From the NCBI GenBank assembly GCA_951406725.2, contig OX597824.1, forward strand, positions 48,980,001 to 49,044,000: a DNA stretch of 64,000 bases. Reading direction: 5' to 3'. Below, piece by piece: positions 25,665 to 62,241 of the stretch. This stretch comes from Octopus vulgaris (taxonomy: Eukaryota). The stretch's first letter is position 1; the number at the start of each line of letters is the position of its first letter. Under the pieces are notes generated by a model. The model did no database searches. It saw only the letters and a list, made by a program, of their open reading frames with translations, and was not told where the DNA came from. The position numbers and the translations under genes are program-made.

Positions 25665-27878
25665 ACCTTTGGTTAAGTCATTTCCGAAGATATGTCAGTC
25701 TTTCTAAAATATTAAATACAATACTGTACTGTTAGTTCTGGGTTGTATCAATTGGTTGCCTTCGTATTCATCTCTGGGAAATAAATAAAAAAGCAATAGA
25801 AACATATAATCTGTATAGCATATTAAAATTAATGTTAAAATACTGTGTGCATCATAAAGATTTGAAATTTGTTTAAAAACAAAGACATTGAAAGTTACAG
25901 GTTAATGGTAAAACAAATCTGAACAAGTGTACTAGTTCAGATGTTTTCCAATAGTGGGGATTCGTGCTCCAGCCACAAGCTTTTCAAATGTGTTCACGTC
26001 GACAGTGCTGTGAAATTTTGTACAATTATTTTTGTGATTTACATTTTAGCCCCATGGCTCCAAAGAAGAATCCTAGTCAAAGTGGTAAGCATAAAGCCAT
26101 GTTGTTGGAAGATAAAGTGGATATAATAAAATGATATGAAAAGATTGTAGCCATTGCACGATTGTTTGAGATGAACTGTACAACTGAATCAGCAATTGTG
26201 CACAATAGAGATAGGATTATGGCACATGTGAAAGATGATGCTCCAGGGATGAAAAGTACCATCATCAACAAGAAAAGAGGACGAATCTATGAAGAGATGG
26301 AGCAGCTTCTTGCCCTTTGGGATGAAAGGCAGAATCATCAGCAAGCAAGTTGTAGTCAGGAAATAATTCAGGAGAAAGCATTGTCTTTGTTTGAAGATTT
26401 GAAAGACATAAAATTTAAGGCAAGTCAGAGATCGTTTATGATATTTAAGCAGCAACAGAATTTGCACTCCCTCAAGAAACAAGGTGAAAGCACATCGGGT
26501 GACGATGTTGCTGCAGTGGAATTTCCTGCTACATTAGCGAAGATTATTGAAAATAATGGATTTCTACCCAAACAAATATTCAATGTTGTTGAGACTGGTA
26601 TCTACTGGAAGAAATTACCAGATCATTCTTTCATATCCAAGGAAGAGTAAAGAATTCCTGGCTACAGAGTATCAAAAGAACATTTGACCTTAATGTTGGA
26701 AGGCAATTGCAAGCTAAAACAGCTGCTTGTATATCACGTGCTGAACTCCCGAGTTCTTAAGAACATGCCCAAGGCATCTCTTCTTGTAATATGGATAGTC
26801 AATTCAAAGACTTGGGTCACTGTCATTATTTTTGAAGAATGGTTTTTCAATCATTTTGTTCCTGAAGCAAAAAAGTACTGTAAGGCTAAAAGGATTCTTT
26901 TTAAAGTTCTGCTTGTCTTAAATAATACTCCAGGCTACCCGAAAAACATCGGAGATTTCCATCCTTGTGTTACTGTTATCTTCTTCCCTCCTAACACTAC
27001 CTCACTGCTGCAGTCAATAGACCAGGGGATAATTGACATTGATGAAAGCATTACAGTCCATGACTTTTGAGAAAGTTACAACATCTACAAAGCCATAGTG
27101 AACATAGCAACTCCGTGGAGCTATGAATGGTGTGTGGAAGAAGCTGTACCCATAATTTGTCAATGACTTTAAGGGCTTTGACAATGTTTAAGTGAATAAG
27201 ACCTTGGTGCAGTTGAGCAATGAACTGGAAATAGAGTTGGAAGAACAGATTTTAATGAATTATTTGAGAAAGATAAACAGTCCCTAACAAACAAAGAGTT
27301 GATGGAACTTCATGAGCAAAAGGAAAAGAAAGAAGAAAAACCTGATCCTGAGCCTCATCATTTTATGTTGAAGAAAATGCAAGAGGCTTTTTTCTCATTT
27401 CGATAAATGTCTTGCTTTATTTGAGGAAATGTATCTCAATACACAGTGTTTTGTAAAAATATTGGTGGGTTGTCAAGATACTATTGCACCTTATTACTTA
27501 ATCCTTGAAGAGAAGGAGAAAAAGACAATTCAAGGAACTTTAGATAAGTTCGCACAACAATCTACACCATCACAACAGGAGTCAGCTGACAATCCCCAAC
27601 CATCGACATCTAGTGTGTAATCTCCTCCCACACCAGCCTCAACAAGTAACACCAATGTTAGCTATCAGGTAGGCAAGATTACAGTATTTGAAATTATTTC
27701 TTTCTAATATAAAAACAGCTTAGGCTTGCCTAACAATTAACCAAATCCATAGACTAACATAACAACTTAGGCTAACCTAGGTTTTAATTATTACATCTAT
27801 ATATATTTAAATAATGGTTATTTCTACCTAAATCATGTCCTCTAGAACCAATTAATGATGTAAGGTGAGGTATGATTG
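25665..27878 (+). mobile_element. Tigger/pogo DNA transposon with decayed transposase (ATG 26054 to ~27620)
   Basis: CENP-B-like HTH (EEMEQLLALW...IQEKALSLF, FKASQ), IFNVVETGIYWK, LLVLNNTPGYP, FFPPNTTSLLQSIDQG; right TIR ...gtgaggtatgattg|TA. The left end is not identified. Confidence 0.9.
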
Positions 27879-29057: not shown

Positions 29058-30042
29058 TATACATATATTTAATACATATATGTGTGTGTGTATTGGTGCC
29101 TCCTTGTCTTGGTATAGTGATCATTATAAACATGTGTCACAATCATACAAGTTGTGTCTTTTACTTCCAATCCTCTGTGAAAACATCTGGCCATGGGTAA
29201 ATATTACCTTACTTGGAAACGGGTAAGGGTTGGCAACAGGAAGGGCATCCAGCCATAGAAAATTATTTTCAACAAATTCCTTCTAACCCATATGAACATA
29301 AGTGGACATATAAACAATGATTGTGATGATAATGTTAGGTCTCTTCCAGTTTCCATCTCCCAAATCCACTCACAAGGCTTTGGTCAGCCCAGGGCTATAG
29401 AAGAAGACACTTGTCCAAGATACCACACTATGGAACTGTACCTGAAACCATATGGCACAGGACTGAGAAAATTTTGTTTGAGATAATAAAATGCTTCTTC
29501 CCATGAATTCAAGTGTTTGCCATTGAAATGTGACACCACACAAAGGTGTGATATCACTTATCAAAGATCCAAAGTGAGGTGAAGACCCAGTCTGCTATTG
29601 AGGATCCAATCCATATACAATTCTTATAAAATTTCTAATGATGAGAATTATACTTGATAGTGGGGAACAAGCCAGTTAAACCTGGCTACAACATCAATGC
29701 GTTTTCAAAGTAAGGCAAAATAATGTTTCATGCTGTCTCACTGTAAAACAAGCTACTTTCCTATCATAGTCCTTTCATTGCCATTAGTAAAGGCACCTGA
29801 CTCCAAAAACAAAAATAAAGACATACCAACAAGAAAGGATTTATGTGGTTGTTCAGCATGCTAGAAATATCAACCAATTCTCCATCAAATCCACCATGAC
29901 ATCTTAGAAAAAAAGGCATATTGTCTAATGTGAACTTGGTGAACTGTGTCTAAGAAAAAGATGATATGGCCACAGCTCTGTCAAGGTTGACTTTGGGTCA
30001 AACAACTAAAAACGAAGAGTTTTGTGATATTTTTTTAAATTA

Positions 30043-32185
30043 GTCATACCCAATGACTGGCGTAGCAGCACCATAGTCAACTGCTACAAGGGTAAGGGTG
30101 ATGCTCTAGATAGAAATAACTACAGGGGTATTAAACTGTTGGACCAGGTGATGAAGGTCACAGAGAGGGTCATAACCCATCTCATTAGGGAGAGAATTTG
30201 CTTAGATGAGATGCAGTTCGGTTTTGTGCCAGGTAGAAGCACCACTGATGCTATATTCCTGGTCCGACAACTGCAGGAGAAGTACCTAGCTAAAGATAAA
30301 CCCCTCTACATAGCTTTTGTGGACTTGGAGAAAGCCTTTGACAGGGTTCCCCGTTCCCTTATCTGGTGGTCGATGCGGAAACTGGAGATTGACGAATGGC
30401 TAATAAGGGCTGTACAGGCTCTATACAGAGAGGCTATCAGCAAGGTTAGGATTGGCAACGAATATAGTGAAGAATTCCGGGTAGAAGTAGGTGTACACCA
30501 GGGCTCAGCCCTCAGTCCCCTTTTATTCATCATAGTCCTCCAGGCAATAACAGAGGAATTCAAAACAGGTTGCCCCTGGGAGCTCCTCTATGCTGATGAC
30601 CTGGCCCTCATAGCAGAATCACTACCGGAACTAAAAAAGAAATTTCGGGTGTGGAAACAAGGGTTAGAATCAAAGGGCCTTAGAGTAAATGTAGCGAAGA
30701 CCAAAGTTATAGTATGCAGAAAGGCGAACTCAGCACACACCCCATCAGGCAGGTGGCCCTGCTCGAGCTGTGGGAAAAGTGTAGGTAGAAACTCCATAAG
30801 ATGCACCCAGTGTAAGCTATGGACGCATAAGAGGTGCAGCAACATCAAAGGCAAATTAACTGATAAGATAGCTTTCATGTACGGCAGATGCACAGGGACA
30901 ATAGACACCACAAATACTCAGAAAACAGATTCCATCACACTCCAGGGGGAGAAACTAGAAGTAGTTGATAGTTTCCGCTACCTGGGTGACCAAGTTAGTA
31001 GTGGGGGTGGATGCTCAGAGAGTATCACCACTAGAATACAAATAGCCTGGGCAAAGTTTAGAAAACTCCTACCCCTACTGGCGACAAAGGGTCTCTCACT
31101 CAGAGTGAAAGGTAGATTGTATGATGCATGTGTGCGAACTGCCATGCTTCATGGCAGTGAAACATGGGGCGTGACTTCAGAGGACATGCGTAGACTTGAA
31201 AGAAATGAAGCTAGCATGATCCGCTGGGTGTGTAATGTCAGTGTGAATGCACGACAGAGGGTAAGCACCCTGAGAGAAATGCTAGGCATAAGAAGCATCA
31301 GATGCGGTGTGCAAGAGCGAAGCTTGCGATGGTATGGTCATGTGTGAAGAAGTGCCACTCCCGAACAGTTGAAGGAATCAGGGGGAGAGGTAGACCCATG
31401 AAGACATGGGATGAGGTAGTCAAGCATGACCTCAGAGCGTTGGGCCTCACTGAGGCAATGGCGAAGGACTGAGATCTCTGGAGATGTGCTGTGACTACTA
31501 AGACCCGGGATGCTTCCAGCACCAGTTCCGCATAGCCTCTGCCCATTCAAAGTACCTTGGATCCCGGAACATCTCGCTATGCTTGAGGAGACCTGTTGAG
31601 TCAAGTGCATGTACATGAACATCGAACCAAATATCAATGGAAATAGTAGTTGTGATACCTGTGCCAGTGGCACATAAAAAGCACCATCCGAACGTGGCCG
31701 TTGCCAGTGCCGCCCCGACTGGCTTCTGTGCCGGTGGCACATAAAAAGCACCATCCGAACGTGACCGATGCCAGCCCCGCCCGATGGCTTCTGTGCCGGT
31801 GGCACATAAAAAGCACCATCCGAACGTGGCCGATGCCAGCCCGCCTCGACTGGCTTCTGTGCCGGTGGCACATAAAAAGCACCATCCGAACGTGGCCAAT
31901 GCCAGCACCGCCTCGACTGGCTTCTTTGCCGGTGGCACATAAAAAGCACCAACCGATCGTGGCCGATGCCAGACCCCTCTGGCACCTGTGCAGGTGGCAC
32001 GTAAAAAGCACCCACTACACTCGCGGAGTGGCTGGCATTAGGAAGGGCATCCAGCTGTAGAAACACTGCCAGATCAGACTGGAGCCTGGAGCAGCCACTG
32101 GCTCCCCAGACCCCGGTCGAACCGTCCAACCCGTGCTAGCGCGGAAAACGCACGTTAAACGATGATGATGATGATGATGATGATG
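30043..32185 (+). mobile_element. 5'-truncated RTE-clade LINE: RT, PHD-like finger, 3' repeat array and (GAT)n tail
   Basis: ORF 30139-31347 contains QFGFVPGRST, FVDLEKAFDRV, GVHQGSALSP, YADD, FRYLG and LHGSETW; tandem hairpin units at 31658-32010. Confidence 0.95.
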
Positions 32186-34856: not shown

Positions 34857-35205
34857 GTTTTTCAAAAATATAATTCAGGACATACCTATTAGAAAAAAAA
34901 CAAAACAAGAGAAGAAAGCAAAGATGACAGAACTACTATCAAAAATAGATTCTCCTGAATTTCATGCTTTATTTACTCCCCAACTGGAAATACTTATCAA
35001 AGTGTTTAAAAAACACAACCATATGCTCAGGATTACTGGTGGAGCAGTACGAGATCTTTTAATGTGGATAGGGCCAACTGACATTGACTTTGCTACAACA
35101 GCCAGCCCTGAAGAAATGAAGATAATATTTACTGAAGAAGGTATCCGAATGATTAACCTGAATGGTGAAAAGCATAAAACTGTCACTGTAAGAATTAATG
35201 ACAAG
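34857..35205 (+). CDS. TRNT1: CCA-adding enzyme / tRNA nucleotidyltransferase-like, coding exon with motif A
   Basis: Acceptor (tttttttcaatag) at 34855-56. The frame is open through FFKNIIQDIPIRKKTKQEKKAK into M(34924)TELLSKIDSPEFHALFT...RITGGAVRDLL...DIDFATTA...IRMINLNGEKHKTVTVRINDK, followed by a phase-0 donor GTAAG at 35206. GGAVRD and DxD are class II nucleotidyltransferase motif A. Orthologue versus paralogue is unresolved. Confidence 0.92.
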
Positions 35206-36000: not shown

Positions 36001-37508
36001 CACTGAACTGTGAAAGAAACGCGAGACGTGTGACTGTGAGATATGTTTTTATTTCATTATGTCAGAGATAAATTTTGATAAATCTGATAAAGTCAATTTC
36101 TTGGATGCACTTTGACCACAGTCTGTGGGTTGTTGTCATGTGTTCTGGTAGTGGGCGGATCCAGCACATTGAGATTATAGGGCATGACATGTTCCATACC
36201 GCGTATGCCCTCCCTAGGTGTTCAAAGAGGCTATATACCATTGGTACATGGAGTGCATGAGGCAGTTCGCAAAAGCCATTGGCACCTGTGCTTACACCTT
36301 GAGGAAAGCAACCTCCAGTTAACACAAGTTGTTGGCCTTGGGACCACCTGGTTCAGCCGTCTCTGGATTTCATCCCACTGGTGTTCAATTGGGTTTAAAT
36401 CCAGGTTGAGAGCTGGCCACAACATGATTCTGATGTTGTGCTGACACAGGAAGTCCATGGTCACCCTGGCCATGTGGGAGGGAGCATTGTCCTGCTGGAA
36501 CACATAGCTATGGTGACACACAAAGAAGGGCACAATGTGAGGTCTTAGGATCTGGTCAATGTAGTGTTGCGCTGTGATGCCATTCCCTCTGCCTGCACTA
36601 ACATTTTGGAACACATGGGGCTCAATTCTCTGATTCAGGCCTATAGCACCCCAAACCATGATGCTTTGGCCACCCCATGCATCTCTAGCATTCACCCCAC
36701 CTATGTCACACTCTCACTCTGCCATCTGAGGTGGAAATGCAGCACTGGCTCTCATCAAAGAAACTATCGACCTTCATTGTTGATGCCACCAATATCGGTG
36801 CTGTGTAGCCCACTGTAGTCATGCCTGATGATGGCAGGTGGTGAGGACAGGCCCTCGAGCAGGACAACAGCAAGTTGTTGGCAGCCACTCGACATCATAC
36901 CATGTCGTCACTGATGGGTTGCTGTCCAGTGCCAATGGTCTCACAAGCTGTCATGCTGGCCGGTCTGAAGTGATCACAGCGGTGTTGCAGGTGGATAAAG
37001 TGGTCCTGCCTGGGCATTGTCACCCAGTGATGCCCTCTGCAGGCACAGTCTACAGTGCTGCTGGTGTTGGTGTATCATTGTATCAGGCAATAGATGGTGC
37101 TGACATGGACATTGTAAGCTTTCATAACAACCAGGGCATGCTGTCCTGCTTGCAATCAGCCAATAGCTTGTTCTCTCTGCACTGCTGACAACCGGGTCAT
37201 ACCTGATGTGTCCAAATTATTAATGCCAGACACATACTTCAAGTTAATTTATACCCAAAACCTCCACAAGATGCACGTGCATGTCAGTTTCCATGACAAT
37301 TGTTTGTGACTGCCACTCACGGCATTCAAAGCAGCTGCATTTTGGCATCTCATTTCAGGAAAAGTTGAAAGGTTACCTGCAATTTAGGTCTCAGCCATAA
37401 ACCAGCATGTCTTGCAATATTTACACTTACATCCTCAAAATAAATTTTTAGAATTTACCATATAAAAATGACATTTGAAAAAAAACGCGTTTCTTTTGCG
37501 GTTCAGTG
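36001..37508 (-). mobile_element. full-length Tc1-like transposon with pseudogenised transposase
   Basis: TA|cactgaactgtgaaagaaacgcg...cgcgtttcttttgcggttcagtg|TA; ATG ~37200 MTRLSAVQREQAIG*; FFDES, GGQSIMVWGAI, FQQDNAPSH, WPALNLDLNPIEH. Confidence 0.95.
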
Positions 37509-38211: not shown

Positions 38212-39750
38212 CTTGCTGAGTGCCACAGACTGAGTCTGTGGATGGTGCAAAGTCCTTTCCAGACCTAGAGTTACGTGGTGGTGGAATAGTGCAGTAGACA
38301 AAGCCATTAGTGCAAAGAGACGGGCCTGGAAAGCCTGGAGGGATCGGAGTAGCAGGGAACTGTACCAGGTAGCCAAAAGGGAGGCTGGCCGGCAGGTATA
38401 CATAGCCAAAGATGTAGCAGAAAAGAAGAAGTTTGCCAATGTCCAGCAACGTGAGGACCAAAGAGCTGAGGTATTTCGGATTGCCAGACAGTGTGTGAGA
38501 GAAAATAGTGATGTTACAGAAGAGAAATGTGTCCGCATGGAGGATGGGGCACTTGCTTTTACTGTTGGTGAAAAGAAAGAGGCTTGGAGAAGCCATTATG
38601 AAAGACTGCTGAATGAGGAGAATGAAGGGGAGAAACTAGAAGTAGTTGATAGTTTCCGCTACCTGGGTGACCAAGTTAGTAGTAGAGGTGGATGCTCAGA
38701 GAGTATCACCACTAGAATACGAATAGCCTGGGCAAAGTTCAGAAAGCTCCTACCCCTACTGGCGACAAAGGGTCTCTCGCTCAGAGTGAAAGGTAGATTG
38801 TATGATGCATGTGTGCGAACTGCCATGCTTTACGGTAGTGAAACATGGGCTGTGACTGTAGAGGACATGCGTAGACTTGAAAGAAATGAAGCTAGTATGA
38901 TCCGCTGGATGTGTAATGTCAGTGTGCACGCACAACAGAGTGTAAGCACCCTGAGAGAAATGCTGGATATAAGAAGCATCAGATGTGGTGTGTAAGAGCG
39001 ACGCTTGCGATGGTATGGTCATGTACTGCGGATGGATGAGGAGAGATGTGTGAAGAAGTGCCACTCCCAAACAGTTGAAGGTATCAGGGGGTGAGGTAGA
39101 CCCAGGAAGACATGGGATGAGGTAGTCAAGCATGACCTCAGAACGTTGGGCCTCACTGAGGCAATGGCGAAGGACCGAGATCTCTGGAGATATGCTGTGA
39201 CTGCAAAGACCCGGAATGCTTCTGGCACCAGTTCCGCATAGCCCTTGCCCATTCAAAGTACCCTGGATCCCAGAACATCCCGCTGTGCTTGAGGAGACCT
39301 GTTGAGTCAAGTACATGAACATGAACATCGAAATAAATATCAATGGAAATAGTAGTTGTGATACCTGTGCCAGTGGCACATAAAAAGCACCATCCGAACG
39401 TGACCGATGCCAGCGCCACCCCGACTGGCTTCTGTGCTGGTGGCACATAAAATGCACCACCCGAACGTTGCCGTTGCCAGCCCGCCTTGGCTGGCTTCCG
39501 TGCCGCTGGCACGTTAAAAGCTCCAACCAATCGTTGCCGATGCCGGACCCCCCCCCTGGCACCTGTGCAGGTGGCACGTAAAAAGCACCCACTACACTCG
39601 CGGAGTGGTTGGCGTTAGGAAAGGCATCCAGCCGTAGAAACTCTGCCAGATCAGACTGGAGACTGGAGCAGCCCCTGGCTTCCCAGACCCCGGCCGAACC
39701 GTCCAACCCGTGCTAGCACGGAAAATGGACGTTAAACGATGATGATGATG

Positions 39751-46295: not shown

Positions 46296-46425
46296 GAAAA
46301 CTTTGAAATTTCTACACTTCGAACAGATTCAGCAATTGTCAAGGGAGCTGCTACACAAGAACTTGATTCGTATTGGCAGCAAGATGCTAACAAAAGAGAT
46401 CTCACCATAAATGCAATGTTTCTCG
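46296..46425 (+). CDS. TRNT1: TRNT1-like coding exon (flexible loop and motif B)
   Basis: tatag|GAAAAC...TTTCTCG|gtaaag encodes ENFEISTLRTDSAIVKGAATQELDSYWQQDANKRDLTINAMFL. Phase 0 in and phase 1 out fit both neighbouring exons. Confidence 0.92.
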
Positions 46426-57829: not shown

Positions 57830-57956
57830 ACTTTGATGGTGTCTTATATGATTATGTCAATGGTCAGGAAAACCTGAAAAGCAAAGTGGTGAAATTTGTT
57901 GATAATCCAGAAGATAGAATCCAGGAGGATTACCTCAGAATCCTTCGCTACTTCCG
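57830..57956 (+). CDS. TRNT1: TRNT1-like coding exon (motifs C and D)
   Basis: ttcattctgcag|AC...TTCCG|gtaagg encodes (D)[42 protein letters not shown], with the EDxxR nucleotide template intact. No later exons were found before the window end. Confidence 0.93.
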
Positions 57957-60334: not shown

Positions 60335-62241
60335 GAAATAGCAGCAATTAGAGCAAGGTCATCTGCATAGAGGAGCTCCCAGGGGCACCCTGTCTTGAAT
60401 TCCTCTGTTATTGCCTGGAGGACTATAATGATTAAGAGGGGGCTGAGGACTGATCCTTGGTGATCCCCTACCCCTACCCAAAATTCTTCACTGTACTCAC
60501 CTTACTGACAGCATCCCTCTACACGGCTTGCACAGCTCTCACTAACCATTCATCTATCCCTAGTTTCCTCATTGACCATCAGATAAGGGAACGGAGGACA
60601 CTGTCAAAGGCTTTCTCCATGTCAACAAAAGCCAAGTACAGAAGTTTATCTTTGGCTAGGTATTTCTCTTGCAACTGTCTTATATAGCATCAATGGTGCT
60701 TTTCCCTGGCACAAACCCAAACTGCATCTCATCTAGACTGACTCTCTCCCTAATTAGTTGGTCTATGACCTTCTCCGTGACCGTCATTACCTGACCGAAC
60801 AGCTTGATACCTGTAATTATTTGTATCTAAAGCGTCACCTTTACCTTTGTAGCTGTTGACTATGGTGCTGCTACACCAATCATTGGGTATGACTCCTTCA
60901 TGTATCACCTGGTTAACTATATGGGTGACTAGGCTATAGCCGATACTGCCAGATATTTCGAGCATCTCTGCGGTGATTCCTGATGGGCTGGGGGCTTTCC
61001 CTGTTTTCATACCCTTAATTGCTTTATCTACCAAGGTACTGTCAATTCGGATAGTTGGTCCTTCTGTTGGGTCAGCACTCGGCAGACTCTTTCTCCCATT
61101 CTCCATTACTTTATTTAGCAACCTTTCATAGTGGTGTCTCCAAGCCTCTCTCATTGCAGCCTCGTTTAATGCAAGTGAACCATCATCCATGTGAATACAT
61201 TTCTCTCCTACGACATCACAATTCTCTCTCACACACTGCCTTGCAACATGAAATACCACAAATCTTTTGTCCTCATGGTGCAGAACATTGGCAGATTTTT
61301 TCTTATCTGCTTCCCCTCTGGCTAAATAAACCTGCCTCCTAGCTTCCCTTCTGGCAGTCTGATACAATTCCCTGCTACCACCATTCTTCCAATCCTTCCA
61401 AGCCTGTTTCTTTTCTCTAATGGCCCTGTCAGCATTGTTCCACCACCACGTTACCTTGGGTCAAGAGGGGACTTTGCACCATCCACAGATCTGGTCAGTG
61501 GCCCTCAGCATGTTGTCTTGTAGAAATTTCCAAGTTGTCTTCCATATAATGTGATGCTATATCCCCCTCTATTTCATCAACAGCTTTCAATAATATGTCT
61601 CTAAATTTCTGTCCATTTGCAGGATCTTTAAGCTTCCAGACCCTTCTCCTCCATGCTGGTCGTCTTTTGGGCATCCATTTAGCCTTGATCCTGAAGTCGC
61701 TAACTGCTATTCTATGTTGTGGGGTACATTCTTCGCCTGGGAAGGTTTTCCTGGCAAGGATGTAGTCAATTTGACTAGTGTGTCTACCAGATCGGTAGGT
61801 GACAAGATGACTGGCAGGTTTCCTGAAGTTAGTATTGCAAAACATAAGATCATTTGCATCACAGAACTCCAGCAGCCTGGTTCCCTCATTGTGGGAACCA
61901 AAACCATATCCTCCATGTACACCATGGAAGCCCCTTGCATGTTGTCCAACATGCCCATTGAAGTCAGCACCTACAAAGAGAAGGTCCGTGTCATTTATCA
62001 ACGAAGTAATCAGCAAGAGGGTGTCATAAAATCGGTCTTTCTGAGGGGCATAGGCCGAGATAATGGTTGCTAACCAATGATGTAGTACTTATCCAATCTG
62101 CAGTATTCTATCGCAGACTCTGACTACCTCGATAACCTTATCAACCCATTTCTCCCTAAGAAGTATACCCACTCCCCCGACCCCATCAGTGTTCCCTGCC
62201 CAGAAAATCTTGTACCTATGTTCTTTGTGTATGAGGAGCCT
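60335..62241 (-). mobile_element. RTE LINE: endonuclease, linker and RT up to YADD, 3' part missing
   Basis: YKIFWAG..GVGILL, GADFNGHVG, SQIDYIL, MKTGKAPSPSGI, VIPNDW, LLYADDLALIA. Confidence 0.9.

Follow-up and report, generated by a model that had tools for sequence, protein, structure and literature searches.

A TRNT1 paralogue with a rewritten flexible loop in Octopus vulgaris: a candidate CC-adding tRNA nucleotidyltransferase beside an intronless canonical copy

The window analyzed here, a stretch of 64,000 nucleotides of Octopus vulgaris DNA (GCA_951406725.2, contig OX597824.1, positions 48,980,001 to 49,044,000, forward strand), contains three exons of an intact seven-exon TRNT1 gene encoding a protein of 413 aa. 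Coding exon 1 (34924..35205, plus strand, as are all window features given below) encodes residues 1-94, with the annotated start Met, motif A and the wedge turn, and is followed by a phase-0 GT donor. Coding exon 2 (46296..46425), of 130 bases, encodes residues 95-137 and carries the third carboxylate E98, the B/A motif, the flexible loop and motif B; a phase-1 intron follows. Coding exon 3 (57830..57956) encodes residues 138-180, comprising motif C with the changes F147V and D152N, an FVD in the place of FVG and the template EDYLR (57925-57939), and ends in a phase-2 donor at the codon of human c.608+1. Four further coding exons were found beyond the window, at C11:49050202-49069996. Each of the six introns has GT-AG ends, and the exons join into a frame of 413 codons free of internal stops, confirming the three clean in-phase exons with intact GGAVRD/DID and EDYLR given in the preliminary description of this stretch; the downstream exons proved intact as well. 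The joined product has the same sequence as the annotated protein P0125 (CAI9730192.1).

The motifs of the window protein were compared with those of its orthologues in O. sinensis, O. bimaculoides and Argonauta hians and with a panel of 192 matches of at least 380 aa, some of them unverified as animal, from which four window-type proteins, four proteins of a second octopod copy on C9 (see below) and three rows of the sister group of the latter (P0008-P0010) were left out. Motif A (35038..35088) reads GGAVRD (35038-35055) and DID (35080-35088), and its catalytic D53 and D55 (human D77, D79) are intact in 4/4 orthologues and 192/192 panel proteins. In the wedge, a beta-turn at H84-K85 (35173..35178), the His is kept and the next residue, a Gly in all 192 panel proteins (human G109), is Lys in all four orthologues. 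The B/A motif R103-T-D105 (46320..46328; human R126, D128) is present in 3/3 Octopus proteins; the Argonauta orthologue additionally carries R103Q and D105T, reads Q-T-T and has lost the motif. Motif B (46392..46400) is KRD in 4/4 orthologues in place of the RRD of full CCA-adding enzymes, with Lys at the position of human R150, which is Arg in 191/192 panel proteins (one gap), and with the ribose-reading R128 and D129 kept.

Between the latter two motifs lies the rewritten flexible loop SAIVKGAATQELDSY (46329..46373; residues 106-120, 45 bases), flanked by TLRTD on its N side and by WQQDANKRD on its C side. As the preliminary description had stated, its length is unchanged and the DGRHA signature is gone: the alignment with human TRNT1 (PDB 4x4w) is ungapped, so the loop deletion that is the hallmark of bacterial-type CC enzymes is absent. 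D-G-R (human 132-134), found in 189/192 panel proteins, is replaced by V109-K110-G111 in Octopus (46338-46346) and by V-Q-E in Argonauta, and where the holozoan loop consensus has DGRbAxV the two read VKGAATQ and VQEASSQ. The loop of the paralogue contains no Arg, whereas 191/192 panel proteins have one.

The gene is spliced and expressed. The stretch of the last exon was contained in 18 of 24 rows, none of them RNA on record, and next to nothing of it occurred in the 6 others, a result that weighs neither way. Four of the 18 runs, from four studies, were examined for introns 1 and 2; their RNA nature was judged from exon-only cover and spliced ends and not from the records. In all four, exon 2 was covered exactly by one contig with 0 other letters, and the loose ends of the contig, from which the two introns were read, matched exon 1 at its 3' end and exon 3 at its 5' start, which shows exon 2 joined to both neighbors. 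Recoding by A-to-I editing that would restore the loop was not seen in the four runs, in contigs that hide minor variants. An assembly error at the loop was rejected because O. sinensis has the same loop, O. bimaculoides differs by one change and 4/4 runs match the exon. A pseudogene was likewise rejected, given the intact frame and splice sites, the spliced exon 2 and the conservation to Argonauta.

In each of the four window-type proteins the start is the equivalent Met and no leader precedes it, as read from four annotations and the genomic frame. The frame of the window gene meets a stop 37 codons upstream of the start, and no other Met lies between. Over 22 codons 5' of the start Met (34857-34923) it is open, behind a possible splice acceptor, and this stretch ends in a lysine-rich segment. 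It is possibly the relic of a lost leader, and an upstream coding exon may be joined through the possible acceptor near 34857. Elsewhere in exon 1, codon 48 (35065-35067) specifies Trp in O. vulgaris and Gly in O. sinensis, O. bimaculoides and Argonauta, the difference being either allelic, at a single base, or fixed, or else due to misassembly. A shorter window-type isoform is annotated in O. sinensis (isoform X2, P0172), which stops after residue 388 and is devoid of most of the last tail helices. Fragments of LINE-type reverse transcriptase and endonuclease lie upstream of and within the gene at 30028-31347, 38234-38995 and 60750-62088, the second and third of these calls resting on likeness to the frame at 30028. 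DDE transposase fragments were observed at 26135-27070 and 36231-36713 (Tc5/DDE_1 and DDE_3).

By its domains, carboxylates, EDxxR template, motif E, fold and place in the tree the window protein is a class II tRNA nucleotidyltransferase of the animal a-type (TRNT1 family). PF01743 and PF12627 both score over the cut-off, D53, D55 and E98 are present, and the best sequence match is human TRNT1 (phmmer E 3e-116). AlphaFold2, run on both octopus copies with the same 40 alignment rows, gave a confident TRNT1 fold for the window protein (mean pLDDT 91.4), with human TRNT1 as best Foldseek match (TM 0.81-0.85). The loop of the C9 copy was modeled as a two-strand hairpin, whereas the window loop, at a pLDDT near 70, had no strand and a helix from residue 114. 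Human TRNT1 and the animal CCA enzymes (PDB 4x4w, 1ou5, 8cbm) share with the window gene the carboxylates, the template and at least one intron position and are closest to it in sequence and fold; the window protein differs from the human enzyme in having neither the D132-G133-R134 signature nor G109, R150 or the mitochondrial leader. It does not read as a bacterial poly(A) polymerase, the diagnostic stretches being LNGEKHKTVTV and ERIWQE.

In order to compare the loop with the background divergence of the protein, conserved columns were defined as those with the same residue in 90% or more of the panel of 192, which gave 131 columns. The O. vulgaris window protein differs at 21 of them and its Argonauta orthologue at 26, against 9 and 8 for the C9 proteins and a panel median of 2. 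Within residues 103-120, 8/11 conserved columns are changed in all four orthologues compared to 12/120 elsewhere (Fisher p = 9e-6), so the rewriting of the loop exceeds background divergence; the C9 copies show 0 changes at the conserved columns of this segment. At 15 of the 20 columns changed in all four orthologues, O. vulgaris and Argonauta share an identical replacement, a pattern that would suit an acquired function no less than a loss. Fixed changes beyond the loop that are absent from the 192 panel proteins are G85K, R127K, F147V, D152N, G162D/E and A38T. Kept in 4/4 orthologues are D53, D55, E98, H84, T86, R128, D129, R167, E170, D171, R174, E213, R214 and E218, and the tail retains its PVSG(H/Y)D motif and the tail Gly. 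Identity between Octopus and Argonauta is 311/404 for the window copy and 320/400 for the C9 copy, which makes the former about as constrained as the essential-looking C9 gene. For residues 103-120 alone it is 10/18 in the window copy against 17/18 in C9 (p = 0.018).

The genome contains exactly two TRNT1 loci, as found in agreement by searches with exon 1, the last exon and PF01743; the window gene is not the sole TRNT1 of this animal but a second copy of an enzyme that, according to PMC4538823, is usually single-copy in eukaryotes. The other locus (L002:526-1875; minus strand, C9 near 90781000-90782300) is an intronless frame of 450 aa encoding a canonical TRNT1 (P0004) with DGRHA loop, B/A motif, HG wedge turn, RRD, EDYIR and ERIWVE, the last being the ERxxxE signature. 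Its leader of 32 residues, 6 basic and 0 acidic, is of mitochondrial type and is followed by a second Met. The window and C9 proteins are 49% identical. Annotated entries for both copies exist in O. vulgaris, O. sinensis, O. bimaculoides and Argonauta hians, and the databases do not distinguish the two by name ('CCA tRNA nucleotidyltransferase 1, mitochondrial' or '-like'). The preliminary description had noticed neither that the parent is the window gene, with its introns, and the normal-looking copy the intronless one, nor the changes from HG to HK, from RRD to KRD and in motif C, nor the missing N-terminal leader.

The relation of parent and copy was read from the introns. At the codon of intron 1, 6/6 exon read-through records from ENA (P0127-9, P0133, P0141, P0143) lose homology; P0136 also breaks there, P0138 does so within one or two codons of it, and a further five short records continue spliced. 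Intron 3, of phase 2, falls within the codon that corresponds to human R203, and the human donor variant c.608+1 reported in PMC7312816 maps to this same site. Because introns 1 and 3 are shared with the genes of relatives, we regard the window gene, by its structure, as the ancestral, intron-bearing parent locus. The C9 copy has an intronless coding region and a paralogue with ancestral introns, as expected of a retrocopy, and is likely to be one; no poly(A) remnant was evident in the 900 bases downstream of it.

The tree places the window clade (100/100) as sister of a group made up of the C9 clade and P0008-P0010 with their cluster members (99/96; 97/94 in a second tree). A topology test, the groups of which were defined after the first tree had been viewed, rejected a grouping of the two octopod copies (p-AU 0.026) and did not reject one of the window clade with the P0008-P0010 group (0.117). 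Stem branches measured 0.95-0.98 for the window clade, 0.59-0.60 for C9 and 0.25-0.29 for its sister group P0008-P0010. The duplication is certainly older than the split of Octopus and Argonauta and probably older than the split from the P0008-P0010 lineage, which we infer from the tree to be another cephalopod group. P0008 (ENA) is a full-length frame of 448 aa on a contig of 71,532 bases, the other ENA matches being single-exon read-throughs, and there is a weak hint that the copy of this sister lineage is intronless too. Window-type orthologues outside octopods were not found among the best 120 of 1568 matches or the best 150 representatives, but this absence weighs little because squid and cuttlefish were not represented by any named protein. 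On account of its very long branch and odd composition P0283, placed with the window clade at 87/72, was disregarded.

The C9 enzyme most likely adds all of CCA, to judge from its motifs, all of which are kept, and from its leader, the only one of the two copies, since animal mitochondrial tRNAs require the addition of the whole CCA. This bears on the proposal in the preliminary description that the window gene may be half of a split CC + A system, in which it would add CC and the C9 gene A only, as in Schizosaccharomyces and Salpingoeca. Both genes are indeed retained together in four species, the C9 stem is longer than that of its sister group, and eukaryotic A-adding enzymes cannot be identified reliably from sequence (PMC7014341). 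However, the only candidate partner keeps every catalytic, loop and B/A residue, including DGRHA, RRD and EDxxR, and carries ERxxxE as do CCA and CC enzymes, not the sRxxxE signature of bacterial A-adding enzymes (PMC2910056). Its sister group P0008-P0010 has no window-type partner among the best 120 of 1568 matches. A third or e-type nucleotidyltransferase that might serve as A-adding partner was not found in the genome either (PF01743, E <= 0.001; 43/43 candidates scored, 3 matches at 2 loci). Because the C9 partner looks fully competent, we consider a true split very unlikely, and this part of the earlier proposal found no support.

The other part, a candidate CC-only or altered-specificity paralogue in a cephalopod, gained support from the two loci, the splicing, the conservation to Argonauta and the nature of the lost residues, which are those at which the human enzyme becomes CC-only (PMC2910056, PMC11784652). 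In the human enzyme D103A, G104A and R105A (mature numbering of D-G-R) add CC only, the first two given as data not shown and R105A with 1.3% of kcat for A (PMC2910056). Saturation mutagenesis at position 105 returns Arg alone, and motif C is described as the spring of the switch (PMC11784652). As to the B/A motif, human D128G abolishes ATP addition alone, and the equivalent of R126 in T. maritima is needed for ATP addition only (bioRxiv 10.64898/2026.03.02.709036). A changed first Arg of RRD, as QRD, is named typical of CC-adding enzymes in PMC7947759. Against the sequence features of eukaryotic-type CC enzymes in PMC7014341 and PMC2910056, the window protein has the loop present with its consensus destroyed, motifs A-E kept and ERxxxE.

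Because single changes in D-G-R suffice to make the human enzyme CC-only, our best explanation, to which we assign an even chance, is that the window gene encodes a CTP-only (CC-adding) tRNA nucleotidyltransferase, likely extramitochondrial, that stands beside the intronless and likely full CCA-adding C9 copy. The retrocopy, with its mitochondrial leader and second Met, would have taken over essential CCA addition in both compartments, and the parent would thereby have been freed from selection on the C-to-A switch, that is on loop, B/A motif, wedge turn and motif C, while selection would have kept its metal site, template, tRNA-gripping body and tail. The window enzyme would then bind tRNA and add C74 and C75 through the D171/R174 template; its rewritten loop would be unable to dock so as to open the pocket for ATP, and the tRNA-CC released would be finished by the C9 enzyme. 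Such an arrangement would be a one-sided division of labor between a CC helper and a complete enzyme and not an obligatory CC + A pair.

By these sequence criteria the octopod enzyme would work like the CC-adding enzymes of Salpingoeca and Schizosaccharomyces. The CC enzyme of Salpingoeca rosetta is likewise an a-type class II protein with a full-length loop devoid of DGR and the core motifs kept, and it too has a second nucleotidyltransferase alongside. There the partner is an e-type A-adding enzyme of separate origin, whereas in octopods the duplication occurred inside cephalopods and the partner resembles a full CCA enzyme. The S. rosetta enzyme also keeps HG and RRD, so that the octopod paralogue, with KRD and a G85K found in 0/192 panel proteins, departs further than the known a-type CC enzyme. 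Schizosaccharomyces pombe offers a duplication origin, a point-changed loop and a B/A motif damaged as in the Argonauta orthologue, but in an e-type fungal enzyme that belongs to an obligatory CC + A pair (PMC7014341), the octopod gene being a-type and its sister copy without sign of lost C addition. Ntr3 of Acanthamoeba castellanii is a CC-only enzyme in a eukaryote that also has full CCA enzymes; it differs in that its loop is deleted and not rewritten, its C75 addition is inefficient and the organism also has an A-adding enzyme (PMC7947759), for which the octopus genome holds no candidate.

What speaks against a CC-adding enzyme is, in part, that a CC helper beside a full enzyme has no obvious advantage; the Acanthamoeba enzyme so placed is said to work inefficiently and to be probably in decay (PMC7947759). 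A second point is that a new, co-evolved loop is conceivable for Octopus, which keeps R103 and D105. The window gene would on this account encode a full CCA-adding enzyme for cytosol and nucleus and leave the mitochondria to the C9 copy, in line with the unchanged length of the loop and with a leader on the C9 copy only. Loops of working CCA enzymes do differ between lineages and function in their own context, with no universal loop residue (PMC2910056), and in Acanthamoeba a putative import signal is carried by one of two full CCA enzymes (PMC7947759). This account is hard to square with the Argonauta orthologue, which has lost both B/A residues needed for A addition. Nor does the loop behave like a working lever, being less conserved between Octopus and Argonauta than the rest of its own core (10/18 versus 140/178 identical, p = 0.039), and the second Met behind the C9 leader could yield a cytosolic form. 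We therefore judge a full CCA-adding window enzyme quite unlikely.

The changes outside the loop raise the question of whether C addition itself has survived. Mutating the R150 equivalent in T. maritima eliminates the addition of CTP and likewise that of ATP (bioRxiv 10.64898/2026.03.02.709036), and K127 could for this reason weaken or kill C addition too. Human T110I, one residue past the site of the wedge-turn Lys that follows the His, reduces both activities according to the same source. A catalytically dead or very weak protein, serving as tRNA binder or regulator or in slow decay, would agree with these two substitutions, with the Acanthamoeba precedent of a feeble, redundant CC enzyme (PMC7947759) and with a Trp48 unique to O. 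vulgaris among the orthologues. It would not account for the retention of D53, D55, E98, H84, R128, D129, E170, D171 and R174 in 4/4 orthologues while the adjoining loop drifted, nor for an intact frame with intact splice sites and a conservation to Argonauta about that of the C9 copy. Between the two paralogues pN is 0.335 and pS 0.695, a ratio on which we do not rely with pS near saturation. A dead or very weak protein is accordingly rated as unlikely.

The same fixed changes (G85K, R127K, F147V, D152N, G162D/E and A38T, in 0/192 panel proteins), together with the long window stem followed by a rate about that of the C9 copy, would also suit an active terminal transferase with a changed product or substrate, for example one that adds oligo(C) tails or tags tRNA-like RNAs, SINE RNAs or others, its hold on the primer being altered by the wedge Lys and KRD. 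E. coli poly(A) polymerase has GRRFR 16 residues from the third carboxylate where the window protein has GEKHK at 17, with a basic residue where CCA enzymes have Gly. This likeness, however, amounts to one residue placed by offset, MAFFT left the two turns unaligned, and the accessible part of PMC2532741 contains nothing on a likeness of the wedge turn to the poly(A) polymerase turn. EDYLR, the tRNA-contacting E213 and, in the tail, the PVSG(H/Y)D motif and the Gly are all kept and point instead to tRNA and CTP as substrates, and we hold such a neofunctionalised transferase to be possible but doubtful.

A parallel on an independent branch was encountered in tsetse flies. Among the 149 other representatives of 50% clusters, 138 have RRD, 4 another first residue and 7 are unmatched by the pattern; the one KRD is that of P0252 (cluster members P0391-P0395), a protein of 364 aa from Glossina austeni, G. 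fuscipes, G. palpalis and G. pallidipes. Its loop is shortened, the B/A acid and the tail domain are absent, and besides KRD it reads FVD in the place of FVG. Because P0252 groups with dipteran enzymes (93/86), descent from one ancient form in common with the octopod paralogue was rejected and the likeness is convergent. The parallel lends some weight to the neofunctionalised transferase, since loop loss is there accompanied by KRD and FVD. It might be, as a tentative and rather improbable extension, that the retrocopy took over CCA addition, that the parent was rebuilt as an RNA 3'-end enzyme which C-tails tRNAs or tRNA-like RNAs as a mark or gate, and that tsetse did likewise independently; if so, there would be a recurring, undescribed animal class of TRNT1-derived C-tailing transferases.

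To return to the CC-adding enzyme, CC-only enzymes are on record from bacteria, fission yeast, a choanoflagellate and an amoeba, and our literature search, which covered mostly journals free of subscription and judged most papers by title and the start of the abstract, found none in an animal. The window gene, if it acts as proposed, would encode a natural animal CC-adding enzyme that was kept across octopod lineages next to a complete one. It would bear on a question left open in PMC7014341, namely whether neutrality or usefulness lets partial enzymes persist, and would exemplify an essential housekeeping role that passed to a retrocopy, with the parent locus repurposed. The Octopus/Argonauta pair would form a natural series for the C-to-A switch, with the loop alone changed in the one and loop plus B/A motif in the other. 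Finally, the searches also returned several TRNT1-like proteins of very divergent sequence, in which the loop and often the template as well are altered, namely P0304, P0296, P0283, P0273 and P0267.
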